Shown: positions 1 to 36,504 of the stretch, piece by piece
How the letters are laid out: every line of letters begins with the position of its first letter
Numbering within the stretch: position 1 is the stretch's first letter
From: an uncultured Desulfobacteraceae bacterium
GTDB taxonomy: Bacteria > Desulfobacterota > DSM-4660 > Desulfatiglandales > HGW-15
Direction of reading: 5' to 3'
NCBI GenBank assembly: GCA_964484515.1
Contig: CAZAGT010000006.1
Span: 1 to 40,557 of the forward strand
Length of the DNA: 40,557 nucleotides
Position numbers and translations under genes: made by a program
The notes under the pieces: model-generated
Seen by the model: the letters and a program-made list of their open reading frames with translations, nothing else
Told to the model about the DNA's origin: nothing
Databases searched by the model: none

Positions 1-77
1 GTCCCCGGTTTCGGAAGCTTTGCATATGGACATTTTCCATCAGCCTCAGAGAAATAGGTTTTTCGACAGCTTCGCTA
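1..77 (-). repeat. Copy C of a MITE-like repeat family; only the terminal ~77 bp is present because the window edge cuts it. Other copies at 31262-31526 and 36181-36504.
   Basis: nt 1-77 align colinearly with 36426-36504 (copy B). nt 10-77 align with the reverse complement of 31262-31329 (copy A). Shared blocks are TTCGGAAGC(C/T)TTGCAT, TTCCATCAGCC and GGTTTTTCGACAG. Similarity ends after CGACAGCTTCGCTA. Confidence 0.8.
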
Positions 78-2845: not shown

Positions 2846-3091
2846 ATGGAAGGCATTATTTCCGATGTTGCGGGCGAAGTCGTTATCGTCCTGTTCATTG
2901 TGGTCTTCATCGCCACATTCGTAGCGGCGGTCGTCCAGCTCATTAGGGAGCGCAACCTGATCTGGATTGTCCTATGGGGGTATACCGTCACGCTCGCCTA
3001 CGGATTCATTTTCGATCAGGATGAGATTATCCTCATAGGTTCGGCCGTCACCGCCCTGATCTGCTTCATCGTGTACCTGCGAACGTCCTGA
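2846..3091 (+). CDS. Small integral membrane protein (81 aa, ~3 hydrophobic helices)
   Basis: GGGAGAGG RBS before ATG 2846; the sequence is dominated by three long hydrophobic stretches. Confidence 0.5.
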   Translation: MEGIISDVAGEVVIVLFIVVFIATFVAAVVQLIRERNLIWIVLWGYTVTLAYGFIFDQDEIILIGSAVTALICFIVYLRTS

Positions 3092-3340
3092 CCTCCCTTT
3101 CCCCGGAGCGAATTGCCTGAAACAAAGTAGGCTGCCCTGCATCAGCCCTGCCTCTCGCTGCGGGAGTTTGCCCGCCTCGGGAGGGCGGCCAGCTTGGCCG
3201 ACCGGGAACCGTCATGAAAATGGTATTTGAATTTGACATTCTCAGATTTTCGACGGCCGGGCGATAAGATTTCAACGACCTCAACTCGTGACGTTTCATA
3301 TGAGATAAGAGCTGGACCGACAGTGTTCTTTCGGATGTCG

Positions 3341-6079: not shown

Positions 6080-6287
6080 CGCAGACCTCCAATGGTTTTG
6101 AAAACACGTACATGGCGATTTTGAGCCATATCCACCAAAGCATCATAGACAACATACCACAGCCTGAGCAATACCTCGATCACCAAATCAGAGTCCATTC
6201 GAAAATCCAAGGTTCAGATATGGAAATTCTCATTTATGGTGCCAACCATCTTGAATTTCAATGTTTTCACTCGCCTTCGCCAGGATG

Positions 6288-6716: not shown

Positions 6717-6766
6717 TGGTAGCGGGGACAGGATTCGAACCTGTGACCTCCGGGTTTTGAGCCCGA
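6717..6766 (-). repeat. Partial 3' copy of tRNA-fMet (distal att site / direct repeat of the island)
   Basis: 6717-6756 is identical over 40 nt to 14209-14248 (TGGTAGCGGGGACAGGATTCGAACCTGTGACCTCCGGGTT). After one mismatch a further 9 nt match (TGAGCCCGA), then the sequences diverge. Confidence 0.9.
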
Positions 6767-6844
6767 GGTGGTCTATTTCCCTCTATTTACATTGCTTTCC
6801 TAAAACCTCCTGAATACTCACATTATTTTGGAAACCCTGTTCTC

Positions 6845-6872
6845 TTGACTTCCTTCGAAATACCTCTATATT
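6845..6872 (+). promoter_or_regulatory. Candidate integrase promoter
   Basis: TTGACT (6845-6850), 16-nt spacer, TATATT (6867-6872), about 50 nt upstream of int ATG 6923. It is embedded in the inverted repeat ACCTCT-N11-AGAGGT. Confidence 0.45.
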
Positions 6873-6880
6873 TATATCAG

Positions 6881-6902
6881 AGGTTGGAAATAGGGTTGGA
6901 AA
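6881..6902 (+). promoter_or_regulatory. Arm-type repeat (2 x GGTTGGAAA), copy 1
   Basis: AGGTTGGAAATAGGGTTGGAAA is identical over 22 nt to 14127-14148. It lies between the putative int -10 and the int RBS. Confidence 0.6.
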
Positions 6903-6922
6903 ACTTCCAGGAGGCCAAATCA

Positions 6923-8086
6923 ATGGGCGCCAGAAAAAAGACCAGTTACCCAGGCGTATTCTATCGAGAAGCAAAAAGACTCGGCGGAAAGGGGATGGAA
7001 AGAGTCTATTACGTCGTTTTCAAGAAAGACGGAAAAGTCCACGAGGAAAAGGCGGGCCGTCAGTACGCCGATGATATGACTCCAGCAAGGGCAGCGGGAA
7101 TCAGAGCCAGGCTTATCGAAGGGAAGCGTCTAAGCAGAAAAGAGGTCAAACGACAACAAGCGGCATTGAAAAAGGCGGAGCAGAAACGTTGGACAATAGC
7201 CAAATTGTGGCAAGAGTATAAGGCCAACAAGCCCGAAATCAAAGGTATGGCGACGGATGAGAATCGCTATCAAAATCATATCAAACCCGAATTCGGCGAT
7301 AAAGAGCCAAAGGATTTGCTTCCTCTCGACATTGATAGAGTTAGAATCAGTCTTCTGAAGAGGAAAAAGCCTGCCACTGTGAAGAACGTGCTTGAGCTGC
7401 TAAGGCGCATAGTGAATTTTGGGGTTAAGAAGAACCTCTGCGAAGGACCCAGATTCAAGATCGAGATGCCAAAATTGAATAACCTCAAAACGGAAGATCT
7501 GACTCCAGAGCAGCTAAGGAATGTATTGGACGCAATTGAGCAAGACTCGAATCGCCAAGCGGCAAATCTTATGAAACTGGCCCTTTTCACAGGGATGAGA
7601 AGAGGTGAGCTGTTTAAATTGAAATGGGAAGACGTCGATTTCGATCGAGGTTTTATTCACTTAAGAGATCCCAAAGGCGGACCCGACCAGAGGATCCCTC
7701 TTAACGAGGCCGCCAGACAGCTTCTCTTATCTCACCCGAGGTCAGAGAGCCCGTACGTGTTCCCTGGTCGAGGGGGAGAACAGCGCACGGACATCAAACA
7801 CCAGGTTAATCGTATCAAGTCCAGAGCTGGCCTTCCCAAGGATTTCAGAGCCCTCCATGGACTGCGGCATGTCTACGCGTCCATGATGGCCTCCAGCGGC
7901 GAAGTGGACATGTATACGCTTCAAAAGCTGCTCACCCATAAGAGCCCGTTGATGACCCAGCGATATGCGCATCTTAGAGATGAGGCGCTGAGAAGGGCCG
8001 CGGGTGTAGCGGGAGAGCTGTTTCGTGAGGCATCCAATGGAAAAGGCGGAGAGAAGGTAGTTCACCTAGAGGACCACAAGAAATAG
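6923..8086 (+). CDS. int: Tyrosine-type site-specific integrase
   Basis: ORF-track 6845..8086 trimmed to ATG 6923, with AGGAGG 8 nt upstream. Catalytic signature blocks are TGMRRGEL (Arg), HGLRHVYAS (His-x-x-Arg) and LMTQRYAHL (Tyr). It sits next to the tRNA-derived att repeat. Confidence 0.85.
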   Translation: MGARKKTSYPGVFYREAKRLGGKGMERVYYVVFKKDGKVHEEKAGRQYADDMTPARAAGIRARLIEGKRLSRKEVKRQQAALKKAEQKRWTIAKLWQEYKANKPEIKGMATDENRYQNHIKPEFGDKEPKDLLPLDIDRVRISLLKRKKPATVKNVLELLRRIVNFGVKKNLCEGPRFKIEMPKLNNLKTEDLTPEQLRNVLDAIEQDSNRQAANLMKLALFTGMRRGELFKLKWEDVDFDRGFIHLRDPKGGPDQRIPLNEAARQLLLSHPRSESPYVFPGRGGEQRTDIKHQVNRIKSRAGLPKDFRALHGLRHVYASMMASSGEVDMYTLQKLLTHKSPLMTQRYAHLRDEALRRAAGVAGELFREASNGKGGEKVVHLEDHKK

Positions 8087-14208: not shown

Positions 14209-14285
<77 letters not shown>

Positions 14286-31126: not shown

Positions 31127-31156
31127 AGTATAGAAATTAAAGGGATTTTGTGTCAA
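31127..31156 (-). promoter_or_regulatory. Strong candidate sigma-70 promoter for the acyl-CoA ligase / ade unit
   Basis: The minus strand reads TTGACA (31156-31151), 18-nt spacer, TATACT (31132-31127), about 115 nt upstream of ATG 31008. Confidence 0.55.
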
Positions 31157-31261
31157 GAGCAAATCCGTGGCGATCTTTCCCTTTGACAGGCCCATCCCGT
31201 TAACCTACTATTTTTGGTCTCAGCATGCGTCCCGAACATATCCCGTCCGGTTCGCTAGAGC

Positions 31262-31526
31262 TAGCGAAGCTGTCGAAAAACCGATTTCGCTGAGGCTGAT
31301 GGAAGATGCCCGTATGCAAGGCTTCCGAACTCCTGAGGAATGAGGCGTAAATGAGTGGCACACGGCTCAAGGCGCAAGGCTTGAGGCAAAGACAAGCGAC
31401 AGCAGTCAGTTTCCCCCTTCAGCCTTCCACCTTCTACCTTTTACCTTCTGTGTACGCCGCAGTGACGAGGGATAAGGGTAATCCCGATTCCATCGGGACA
31501 GATGGGCGGTTTCCGACAGCCTCAGC
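31262..31526 (+). repeat. Copy A (short form, ~265 bp) of the MITE-like repeat family
   Basis: Imperfect terminal inverted repeats: GAAGCTGTCGAAAAACCG (31266-31283) versus the reverse complement of 31507-31523 (GAGGCTGTCGGAAACCG). An internal GCTGAGGCTG (31289-31298) is perfectly complementary to CAGCCTCAGC (31517-31526). About 170 bp are near-identical to copy B in inverted orientation. Confidence 0.85.
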
Positions 31527-32369: not shown

Positions 32370-32771
32370 TCAGTCCTTGATGAGTACGGATGGGATATCC
32401 GTATGGCTGAAATTCCGGCCTTTGAAGAGCAACGGTTCGCCGGAGTATTTCGCCAAAGCGTAGGCACAGCAGTCGCCGATGTTCAGGCCAGCCGGATGGT
32501 TTCCCTTGCCAAAGGTCCTCCAGGCAGACCGTGCAAGCTCCACCTGATCAACGTTGATGGCGACAACTTCGATTCTAGCGCGGTGTATCAGCAGATCGAG
32601 TTCGCGTCCGCCCGTCTCCCCTTTCTTGGCCTCGATGACAATGCCGGTCTCCAGTGCATTGAAGGTGCTGATCAGTTTTTTCGGATTATCGGCAAGCGCC
32701 CGCGCAAAGGATTCGGCATCGCTCAGGGCCGTGAGCCTGTCGAACGGCAGATGGGCGTTTTCCGACAGCCT
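32370..32771 (-). pseudogene. vapC: Orphan VapC-like PIN-domain toxin gene lacking a canonical start codon and any antitoxin
   Basis: My own minus-strand translation gives ...HLPFDRLTALSDAESFARALADNPKKLISTFNALETGIVIEAKKGETGGRELDLLIHRARIEVVAINVDQVELARSAWRTFGKGNHPAGLNIGDCCAYALAKYSGEPLLFKGRNFSHTDIPSVLIKD*. The frame is closed upstream by TAG (32772-32774) with no ATG/GTG/TTG before the PFD motif. The ORF track reports only the antisense 32403..32777. Confidence 0.6.
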
Positions 32772-32851
32772 CTATAGAGACTTTCAAAATCGACCCTTTT
32801 CCGTTATTGTGTCTTTGTAATACGGCAACTACTTGAACCAGGAGGTGCGTC

Positions 32852-34927
32852 ATGAAGAGCGACCGTCGCCCATTCTTTCTAACCATTGTGTGTCTTTGCG
32901 GCCTCGCCATGAGCCATACGGTGTTTGCCGGACCCTATTCCCCTCTGAAGCAGCCGAGCCCCAAGGAAGAAGCATCGGGTGCTCCCATGATGGAACCGCT
33001 GCTTGAGGTCAACCAACTCCCGACCCCGTTTCCTTCGCGCCGCCAAATCATCGATGCGAACAAGGGGAGTGCCTGTCTGAAATGCCATCGAATGCCCTAT
33101 CCCACAGCCCCCTCGATGGGCGGCCAAGGAGGTTTACCCGCGATCCCCGTCACCCATCCCGGCGGCTGGAGCCTAATGACCCCCAGGCCGCACCCCTTTC
33201 ACAAGGTGGCCGAGTGTTGGAGCCCGGACGGGAAACAGGTCCTCTACTCGCTGAATCTGTATCGGAATGATTGGGACATCTGGGTCATGGATGCGGAAGG
33301 GAAAGAGCATCGGCCGCTGATCACCGGCGCGAGCATCGATCTGGCACCGAGTTGGAGTCCCGGCGGAACCTCCATCGCGTTTCAGTCCGATCGCTCCGGA
33401 AACAAGGATATCTGGCTCATGGATCTGGCGTCCAGAGAGTGTACGCGCCTTACCTCCGATCCGGCCGCGGACACCACGCCGAGGTGGTCGCCGGACGGCA
33501 GCAAGATCGTGTTTCAGTCCAACCGGACCGGTGACCCCGAGATCTGGCTGCTGGATCTGCACACGCGCCGGACGGTACAACTCACCTCTAGCCCTGGGCT
33601 GGAGGAATCCCCGATCTTCGCCCCCAGTGGTGATCTGATCGCGTTCGTGACCGAACGTGCAGGAAACAAGGACATCTATCTGATGAAGACCGACGGCTCA
33701 AGCCAAAGGGCTCTCACATCAACCCATGCAGATGAGGAGTGTCCCTTTTGGAGCCCGGACGGTCAGAGGATCATGTTTGCCCGCAGGATGGGAGACAACT
33801 GGGATCTCTGGGCCATGAACAGCGATGGGGGCGAACAGACACGGCTGACGACCCATCCCGCCGCCGAGACCTGTCCCCTCTGGAGTCCGGACGGGCAATG
33901 GGTCGTATTCTCCTCGTCGCTACGCGGCCGATGGGACGTCATTCGGATGCAGGTGGACGATTCCATGCTGGACCCTTCAAATGGGTCCCCGAGAAGGCTA
34001 ACGGATAGCGATGCCAGAGAGGTGGGCGCCGTCTGGAGTCCGGACGGCAAACGGATCGCCTATAACCACGGTGCCAGCAACTACTGGAGCATCTGGGTCA
34101 TGGAGATGGATGGCAGCGACAAGCGGCAGCTCACCGGAACAGACGAGGATGCGGGCTGGCCGGTCTGGAGCCCGGATGGTCGCCGGATTCTCTATTGGGC
34201 CTCACGGGACGGTAATCAGGACGTGTGGGTGATGGACGCCGACGGCCGCAATAAAAGGAGGTTGACGAGCGACCCTGCCCTCGACGGCTACGGCCAGTGG
34301 AGCCCGGATGGGCTGCAGATCGTCTTCGTCTCTGAGCGGACCGGCAACGGGGATCTCTATCTGATGGACGCCGATGGGAGCCGTGTCAAACGCCTGACCT
34401 TTGCCGATTCCCTCGATTGGACCCCATACTGGTCTTACGACGGCAAGCAGGTCTGCTACGTATCGAATGAGACCGGCCGGTGGGAGATCTGGACCGTGGA
34501 CGTGGAGACCCTGGAAAAGAGGCATCTGACGCCTGATTCGGGCGGCAATTTCGTGCCGCGCTGGCAGCCGGGGGGGCGGAAGATCCTCTATAACGGATGG
34601 CGCGGCGGCGAGTACACGATCGAGGGGAGCTTCGATGTGGTGGTGATGAACCCGGACGGCAGCGCCAAACAGCAACTGGTCCCTTCACCGATGGACGAGA
34701 TGTCCTGCCGTTGGAGCCCCGACGGGAGCCGCGTCGCGTTCTGGTCGTGGCGCCTCCAGAACCCGGATATCTACGTGGTAAACGCCGACGGTTGCGGTCT
34801 GCGGCGACTCACGCACAATCTGTCATGGGACGTGTTTCCAGCCTGGAGTCCGGACGGAAGGAAGATCGCCTTTGACTCCGACCGCCTGGGTAACTTTGAT
34901 ATCTGGGTGATAGATGTCCCGGAGTAG
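32852..34927 (+). CDS. Secreted PD40 (TolB-like WD40-like) beta-propeller repeat protein, ~13 blades, with one N-terminal CXXCH motif
   Basis: AGGAGG RBS and signal peptide. There are about 13 iterations of the W-S-P-D-G...F.S.R.G..DIW pattern. CLKCH lies at residues 75-79 (33074-33088). Confidence 0.8.
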   Translation: MKSDRRPFFLTIVCLCGLAMSHTVFAGPYSPLKQPSPKEEASGAPMMEPLLEVNQLPTPFPSRRQIIDANKGSACLKCHRMPYPTAPSMGGQGGLPAIPVTHPGGWSLMTPRPHPFHKVAECWSPDGKQVLYSLNLYRNDWDIWVMDAEGKEHRPLITGASIDLAPSWSPGGTSIAFQSDRSGNKDIWLMDLASRECTRLTSDPAADTTPRWSPDGSKIVFQSNRTGDPEIWLLDLHTRRTVQLTSSPGLEESPIFAPSGDLIAFVTERAGNKDIYLMKTDGSSQRALTSTHADEECPFWSPDGQRIMFARRMGDNWDLWAMNSDGGEQTRLTTHPAAETCPLWSPDGQWVVFSSSLRGRWDVIRMQVDDSMLDPSNGSPRRLTDSDAREVGAVWSPDGKRIAYNHGASNYWSIWVMEMDGSDKRQLTGTDEDAGWPVWSPDGRRILYWASRDGNQDVWVMDADGRNKRRLTSDPALDGYGQWSPDGLQIVFVSERTGNGDLYLMDADGSRVKRLTFADSLDWTPYWSYDGKQVCYVSNETGRWEIWTVDVETLEKRHLTPDSGGNFVPRWQPGGRKILYNGWRGGEYTIEGSFDVVVMNPDGSAKQQLVPSPMDEMSCRWSPDGSRVAFWSWRLQNPDIYVVNADGCGLRRLTHNLSWDVFPAWSPDGRKIAFDSDRLGNFDIWVIDVPE

Positions 34928-36180: not shown

Positions 36181-36504
36181 GAGAGGCTGGTGGAAAACAC
36201 CCATCTGTCCCGATGGAATCGGGATTGCCCTCATCCCTCGTCACTGCGAGGTACACGGAAGGTAAAAGGTAGAAGGTGGAAGGCTGAAGGGGGAAACTGA
36301 CTGCTGTCGCTTGTCTTTGCCTCAAGCCTTGCGCCTTGAGCCGTGTGCCACTCATTTACGCCTCATTCCTCGGGATTTCTTTACCTGCGCTTCGCTCCGG
36401 CCCAGTCCCCACTCCTTCGGGGCGGGTCCCCGGTTTCGGAAGCCTTGCATCTGGGCATTTTCCATCAGCCGCTCTATAGCCGGTTTTTCGACAGTCTCGA
36501 AAGC
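36181..36504 (-). repeat. Copy B (long form, ~324 bp) of the MITE-like repeat family, inverted relative to copy A
   Basis: 36200-36370 is near-identical to the reverse complement of 31346-31513. It carries a 58-nt insertion (36377-34) relative to A. The right part (36426-36504) matches window nt 1-77. Confidence 0.85.

Follow-up and report, generated by a model that had tools for sequence, protein, structure and literature searches.

A probable family of miniature transposable elements with optional hairpin modules in uncultured Desulfobacteraceae

The stretch of 40,557 nucleotides analysed here (the window) belongs to contig CAZAGT010000006.1 of an uncultured Desulfobacteraceae bacterium and carries several copies of a short repeated element. 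This element is very likely a MITE, a short DNA transposon that is non-coding and non-autonomous, and its family is abundant in uncultured Desulfobacteraceae. Its size, inverted repeats and duplications fit the published definition of prokaryotic MITEs (PMC11602168, PMC10969869). The family is, so far as checked, not described before: a literature search with 13-mers of the element ends returned no paper, and one with the terms MITE and Desulfobacter nothing relevant. A large MITE census left out MAGs and metagenomes (PMC11602168), which fits the family being uncatalogued.

The element is mobile. Its repeats, its ends, the target-site duplication, the target bias, an empty site and the lack of orientation bias are demonstrated, and the class of transposase and the way in which modules are exchanged are inferred. 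All the MITE features tested for were found and only a cognate IS is missing. As it stands the family is an uncatalogued MITE of the ordinary kind. In Desulfobacteraceae MAGs it gives rise to spurious ORFs and to 'conserved intergenic motifs' that mislead, and it breaks assemblies, because many loci end inside a copy.

Copies in the window and the basic unit

The first-pass annotation of the window described a multi-copy element bounded by terminal inverted repeats, with copies at 1-77 (partial), 31262-31526 and 36181-36504. This description is borne out, with limits that are refined in Table 1. Those of copy A come from comparison with about 60 complete copies and with the empty site described below; its covariance-model match covers the full model length (97 bits). 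Copy C is cut off by the window start and its match (51 bits) misses the 3' end; the first 77 nt of the window agree at 91% with the left part of the element. Copies A and B, in opposite orientation, share a 197-nt stretch with 94% identity in a repeat scan, and a 70-nt left part with 79% identity. Their alignment displays one main difference, a 58-nt insert in copy B (module m2) that accounts for the difference in length. Fragment D, a right end alone, had been overlooked. Its positions 32748-32772 are 96% identical to the right end of copy A in the repeat scan, and it matches ...GCTCAGGGCCGTGAGCCTGTCGAACGGCAGATGGGCGTTTTCCGACAGCCTC of copies of the L030/L070 type (sequences compared with the window are designated L and a number).

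Table 1. Features of the probable MITE and of its surroundings in the window
Feature	Position	Strand	Remarks
Copy C, left 73 nt	1..73	-	Outer and inner left motifs, start of m2
Promoter-like site TTGACA-17-TACTAT	31183..31211	+	Upstream of copy A; conserved in L128, L129, L132
Target-site duplication AGC, left copy	31263..31265	.	Identical AGC just outside both ends of copy A
Copy A, 258 nt	31266..31523	+	Backbone with modules m3 and m5a
Outer-left terminal repeat GAAGCTGTCGAAAAACCG	31266..31283	+	Functional left end; duplication counted from here
Inner-left copy of terminal motif GAGGCTGATGGAAGATGCCCGTATGC	31292..31317	+	Pairs with right end
Module m3, ~102-nt hairpin	31350..31451	+	Extends central GGCGTA/TACGCC stem
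Module m5a, hairpin TCCCGAT-TCC-ATCGGGA	31482..31498	+	Replaces CGCAG of minimal form
Right terminal repeat ACAGATGGGCGGTTTCCGACAGCCTC	31498..31523	+	
Target-site duplication AGC, right copy	31524..31526	.	Last 3 nt of the 10-bp helix of the first-pass annotation
vapC (PIN) pseudogene, 5'-truncated	32370..32720	-	Abuts fragment D at 32720/32721
Fragment D, last 52 nt of an element	32721..32772	+	3' half of m5b and right terminal repeat
Copy B, 316 nt	36183..36498	-	Backbone with modules m2, m3 and m5a
Module m3 in copy B	36255..36356		
Module m2 in copy B, approximate limits	36376..36433	-	GC-rich hairpin GGGGACCCGCCCCGAAGGAGTGGGGAC and tail

The commonest form of the element is a 151-nt unit with a rod-like foldback, 17 copies of which are 95% alike. 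Element lengths go from 62 to 429 nt with a mode at 151 nt, for a MITE size range of ~50-800 bp, and the backbone is non-coding; in a set of about 55 complete copies extracted by script the lengths are 62 to 343 nt. One motif of ~26 nt occurs three times per element, twice as direct copies at the left and once inverted at the right. The imperfect terminal inverted repeats are GAGRCTGTCGRAAAAC; the 16-nt consensus of the outer-left end and the right end agree at 14 of 16 positions, where MITEs have inverted repeats of at least 10-15 bp. The ~18-bp imperfect inverted repeat noticed at first, GAAGCTGTCGAAAAACCG against the reverse complement of CGGTTTCCGACAGCCTC, is confirmed and pairs the outer-left motif with the right one, while the 10-bp helix reported beside it joins the start of the inner-left motif to the right motif. 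The segment from the inner-left motif to the right end forms a long imperfect palindrome (foldback) whose ~20 terminal pairs in the consensus fold are near-invariant. In 63 of 83 copies TNA stands before the inner-left motif; copy A has GCT at this place.

Evidence for insertion

A 3-bp duplication, within the 2-10 bp usual for MITEs, flanks 35 of 54 copies; 3.4 are expected, and none of 2000 shuffles gives more than 10. The other 19 copies, copy B (TTC/TCC) included, have no perfect duplication. The 47 reconstructed targets have 38.5% GC and are roughly palindromic, with the consensus c-T-[W-A-N]-R-g.

A search for Orn homologues gave relatives with the gene order of the window, an AMP-binding gene followed by a divergent spacer and orn. 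One of them is L128, whose Orn is 88% identical. It reads ...GCTCTAACTACG/AGGAGTCTTGATTTGAAC... where the window has ...GCTAGAGCTAGC(258-nt element)AGC/AGGAGTCTTGATTTGAAC..., AGGAGTCTTGATTTGAAC beginning with AGGAGTC, and it holds a single trinucleotide at the target of copy A. Removal of the element and of one AGC from the window restores colinearity without a gap, and L128 is therefore a clean empty site. Target-site duplications and empty sites, by which the first-pass annotation had proposed to check the element, are thus both present. An all-against-all search with the flanks of the copies gave orthologous filled sites and no clean empty one; L017 and L033, considered as an empty-site pair, are too diverged. 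At the copy B site the gene order around the neighbouring malonyl-CoA decarboxylase gene is not conserved.

The sequence data suggest the following course of events. A DDE-type transposase supplied in trans would recognise the ends GAGRCTGTCGRAAAAC, cut out or copy the element and insert it at AT-rich, roughly palindromic sites with a 3-bp staggered cut, whose repair would leave the 3-bp duplication. Recombination or conversion between copies would then make module content differ even between orthologous insertions.

Occurrence outside the window

Further copies, whose existence the first-pass annotation had left to be checked, are numerous. A pattern search with the left end finds three loci in two MAGs of Desulfobacteraceae. 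In metagenomes it finds at least 120 loci with unrelated flanks, and the contigs of a single assembly, CAJIAF01, carry at least 15 of them. Many of the metagenome loci lie at contig ends. All copies outside the window were found with this pattern, and variation of the left end is under-sampled because the pattern is fixed on it. A scan of viral contigs gives no match to the element, and a blastn search of PLSDB with the 151-nt consensus only chance matches (E >= 0.4).

Decay products of the family include a 62-nt mini-copy in L119 and solo right ends. L126 (2770-2800; also L127) carries a 23-bp remnant, GAGACCGTCGAAAAACCAGCCTC, flanked by AAC/AAC and located 12 nt upstream of the ribosome-binding site of a malonyl-CoA decarboxylase gene; the relative L125, which is 90% identical, is empty there. 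Copy B of the window lies near this place, in opposite orientation.

Optional hairpin modules

The longer copies, those of the window included, consist of the 151-nt backbone and of optional hairpins at fixed positions. Module m1 replaces ATGCAAGGCTTCC: copies with m1 carry a self-contained hairpin in place of the left strand of helix 2, while the partner strand stays. Module m2 is placed after TTCCGAAA and is found, besides copy B, in L013, L026, L035, L060 and others, with its start in copy C. Module m4 is placed after GCAGTGAC. Either m5a or one to three tandem m5b hairpins stand before CAGATGGG. The 7-bp hairpin TCCCGAT-TCC-ATCGGGA singled out by the first-pass annotation exists as described and is m5a; its stem appears in other copies with the loops GGA, GGG, AGA or GGAG.

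Module m3 has arms built of tandem 7-nt periods (AAGGnnn/CCTTnnn) and is missing from the 151-nt minimal copies. The polypyrimidine (CCTT-rich) tract and the CTCAAGG block, listed at first as separate features, are both real and are the two arms of this one hairpin. Hairpin and periodicity recur in L046, L055, L072, L089, L104, L110, L117 and L122. The sequence of m3 varies greatly among copies; what is kept is the hairpin and the 7-nt period.

The modules hardly ever occur outside the backbone, and the exceptions led to the sister family presented below. Insertions that share flanks and backbone markers, and are thus orthologous, carry different modules: L058 has 151 nt and L122 429 nt, L069 151 nt and L011 238 nt, L030 190 nt and L090 198 nt. 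In L122 the m3 hairpin substitutes for the canonical loop and is not added to it. This substitution points to exchange from copy to copy, and it is most likely that modules are exchanged between copies by recombination or conversion, rather than by simple insertion and deletion.

Fold, covariation and orientation

RNAalifold gives the minimal copies a rod-shaped consensus fold in which a terminal helix of ~20 pairs is followed by three inner helices. The first-pass annotation had noticed a perfect 10-bp complementarity in copy A, which is present, and had proposed that this long-range helix covaries between copies A and B. The proposal is not borne out, as both changed positions lie in flanking or duplicated target DNA. 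The right arm of the helix (CAGCCTC/AGC) runs 3 nt beyond the end of the element into the target-site duplication; the helix is made of 7 bp of conserved inverted repeat and 3 bp of duplicated flank, and both changes seen on the two arms fall within these three flank positions. The latter are all paired in 3 of 83 copies, against 1.9 by shuffling (p=0.29). The remaining 7 bp are part of the ~20-pair helix between the inner-left motif and the right end, where only 3 cells are changed on both sides in 60 distinct copies.

Covariation was counted in a backbone alignment of 60 copies, obtained by pairwise alignment to the consensus with the modules excised. A covariance-model alignment was left out of the counts because it mixes reverse-strand matches to the palindrome and matches ending at m5b. 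In the backbone alignment 97.4% of the cells are paired. Nine pairs carry changes in both partners. Shuffling gives 1.9 +/- 1.2 such pairs and reaches 9 in 0 of 500 rounds, and slid controls give 2-6. The copies of this set are related and ~94% alike, a condition under which all shuffles can be surpassed even where no structure exists. The compensated changes are mostly in ATCCC/GGGAT (columns 65-69:109-113) and in the GGCGTAC hairpin, not in the long-range helix. Mismatches that would be G-U on the + strand occupy 21 pair positions and those that would be G-U on the - strand 19 (54 and 30 cells); wobble and A-C mismatches being balanced by site, neither strand is clearly favoured.

From the earlier proposal of a selected RNA or single-stranded DNA fold there remains a modest compensatory change in the inner helices, with no strand asymmetry; the helix that had been put forward for it drops out. 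The palindrome is probably under some constraint, which may or may not act at the RNA level. A DNA-level foldback MITE accounts for the fold and orientation data no worse than a selected RNA does. The first impression that the element is not a known Rfam family holds: Rfam has nothing on it at gathering score or at E <= 10, and the window gives only two tRNA matches.

The orientation of the element to its neighbours is even. Among 86 copies with crudely called ORFs, 60 could be scored for the downstream gene, which is co-oriented with the element in 30 and opposed to it in 30; for the upstream gene the numbers are 28 and 30. The first five copies were co-oriented, and an element carrying a leader or a promoter was considered and rejected on the 30:30 split of the larger set, which makes the early impression one of chance.

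The sister family and its core

A sister MITE family, not present in the window, is found at L058 3143-3268, L088 8928-9052, L105 ~2434-2690, L122 ~2930-3110 and L045 ~6080-6260. Its terminal repeats (CCTGATCACCAGCRAGGTATTAGATGC and its inverse) are unrelated, and it has the core, m5b and the same rod fold in common with the family of the window. The core AGATGC..GAGGCGTA..TACGCCGCA..GGTAACGC.GCAGATG is kept in the sister family at roughly 70% identity. It is unusual for MITEs that the core is conserved and the ends differ, and this is the opposite of the expected decay of the interior.

Alternative explanations

Several observations count against a plain MITE: the searches gave no autonomous partner, 19 of 54 copies are without a perfect duplication, the left end is duplicated into an outer and an inner motif, which is atypical of simple MITEs, the compensated substitutions of the foldback exceed the shuffled and slid controls, and the sister family has the core in common but not the ends. 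The compensated substitutions would suit an element that is primarily a structured RNA, either a small RNA gene or a cis-acting leader, whose fold is selected and whose spread is secondary. Copy A folds as RNA with -94 kcal/mol (z = -2.8) and the minimal foldback as DNA with z = -5.4, optional hairpins at fixed positions are known from variable-stem RNAs, the core is kept in a family with different ends, and copy A lies downstream of a conserved promoter, so that it is probably transcribed. The copies are however 94-95% alike with several of the double changes common to related or orthologous copies, so that these changes represent few events. A functional RNA would be expected to keep to one strand, and here neither the orientation to genes nor the sites of mismatch favour one; copies with m1 have lost the left strand of helix 2 while its partner stays, no Rfam family matches, and the orn ortholog of L128 is entirely without the element, so orn does not need it. 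An RNA in the first place is quite improbable.

The many hairpins of the foldback, and the resemblance of m5b (one to three copies in L002, L079, L099 and L122) to tandem REP-like hairpins, could recall REP/REPIN or IS200/IS605-type hairpin elements, which a tyrosine (Y1/RAYT) transposase moves in single-stranded form. Y1-type elements are not known to make a target-site duplication, and the element has both a 3-bp duplication and inverted ends; no Y1/RAYT gene was seen among the window ORFs and the modules almost never leave the backbone, which makes such an origin highly improbable. The similarity of copies A and B could by itself be due to local segmental duplication or to an assembly artefact, a reading refuted by the independent loci with unrelated flanks, the duplications and the empty site. 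The MITE remains the best explanation, within which the hairpin core might be a selected structured module, RNA or single-stranded DNA, that rides on transposon ends and is not passive filler. The sister family core and the compensated substitutions hint at a constraint on the core beyond transposition, and the core could serve as a platform to which a host or transposition factor binds. This reading of the core is unlikely; compatible with it are the core conservation, the compensated substitutions, the restriction of hairpins to fixed points and the hairpin sets that vary between orthologous insertions. If the core were functional, the family would be a handle on the spread of structured modules via transposon ends.

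Partner transposase and family placement

No DDE transposase is encoded among the window ORFs of at least 150 aa, in accordance with the first-pass annotation; two tyrosine recombinases are encoded in the window, the rest being housekeeping genes. Exact look-ups of three window proteins gave no record. An autonomous partner with the same ends was not found in the window, in 123 loci or in PLSDB, nor do the 123 loci have paired element ends 0.8-2.5 kb apart. What looked like a transposon end in L082 (position 989) falls within a proA-like gene and matches by chance.

Elements of the IS1031 group have ends that start with GAG and make 3-bp TNA duplications, with a TNA/TWA-like target. The target T/WAN/R of the present element is similar to TNA and not identical to it, and TNA is also the trinucleotide that commonly precedes the inner-left motif. 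A 3-bp duplication is canonical for PIF/Harbinger elements, relatives of the IS5 family (PMC12730594). The present element shares this duplication length with the IS5 family (IS1031/IS427-like) and with the PIF/Harbinger-Tourist MITEs, but its duplications are W-A-N and not strictly TNA, and it is known without a transposase. A possible descent from the IS5 family, IS1031 group, is a lead.

Relation to known repeats

Prokaryotic MITEs such as Correia/CREE of Neisseria, RUP of pneumococcus and QMITE of Coxiella resemble the element in their length of 50-800 bp, terminal inverted repeats, short duplications, absence of a transposase, many intergenic copies, AT-rich targets and stable stem-loop (PMC10969869, PMC11602168). 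The family of the window differs from them in the duplicated left motif, in the optional hairpins at fixed sites and in its uncultured Desulfobacteraceae host. We know of no sequence relation between it and Correia/CREE, RUP or QMITE.

The 127-bp imperfect palindromes ERIC/IRU of enterobacteria are similar in that the complete repeat forms one long imperfect palindrome between genes. Length variants of ERIC reportedly arise by deletions and insertions at specific internal sites. ERIC/IRU differ in sequence and host from the present family, which has a 3-bp duplication with an empty site and modules that are more numerous and are themselves hairpins. Effects of ERIC on RNA processing were described (PMC10969869). 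BOX of Streptococcus pneumoniae is likewise modular, with boxA, n repeats of boxB, and boxC; the number of its internal modules varies, its predicted structure is strong, and insertion of repeats into one another is on record (PMC10969869). BOX modules are however linear and in tandem, whereas those described here are mostly hairpins at five fixed foldback positions. The element works like ERIC and BOX and is a member of neither. BrickBuilt of Porphyromonas gingivalis has a short-period tandem repeat inside a MITE (PMC4596501), comparable to the 7-nt periods of m3; the periods of m3 form both arms of a hairpin and not a one-stranded tandem array.

The orn locus and other features of the window

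The ribosome-binding site of orn lies 3 nt past copy A, which inserted between the orn promoter and this site. The orn mRNA probably carries the whole of copy A as leader. In L129 (2540-2990; also L130 and L131) the spacer from promoter to orn has a different insert of ~430 bp with the long inverted repeats GGCCATGGGGATCTTTTTTCAA ... TTGAAAAAAGATCCCCATGGCC, whose match in Rfam is a weak one of hairpin type (MIR1437, with 36 bits where the gathering score is 168). This spacer looks like a hot spot for insertions. The AMP-binding/orn spacer of the window has two divergent promoter-like sites within 31127-31211, the + strand site of Table 1 and TTGACA-18-TATACT on the - strand.

The vapC pseudogene lacks its first 16 codons, the start codon and the antitoxin gene. 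It covers positions 18-118 of the 120 of the Pfam PIN profile and aligns, with 86% identity, from residue 17 of the intact 139-aa PIN protein of L132, which has an intact pair of PIN and 78-aa genes downstream of orn. The break of the pseudogene exactly at fragment D and the intact pair of L132 lead to the conclusion that a MITE-associated deletion destroyed vapBC. The position of copy A between promoter and orn ribosome-binding site, and the tie to the loss of vapBC, therefore mark recent genome change in an uncultured sulfate-reducer lineage.

The full tRNA-Met(CAT) gene at 14212-14285 and a 3' tRNA fragment at 6720-6784 form a 50-nt direct repeat with 98% identity; in the segment 6717-14285 they enclose ~7.4 kb of DNA with a lower GC content, at whose start a tyrosine integrase is encoded (6845-8086) and which has the appearance of an integrated genomic island. 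Direct repeats spaced by 132 nt at 33218-34871, inside a 691-aa ORF (32852-34927), correspond to the protein repeats of a PD40 (WD40-like beta-propeller) protein, with 11 Pfam stretches, and are ordinary.
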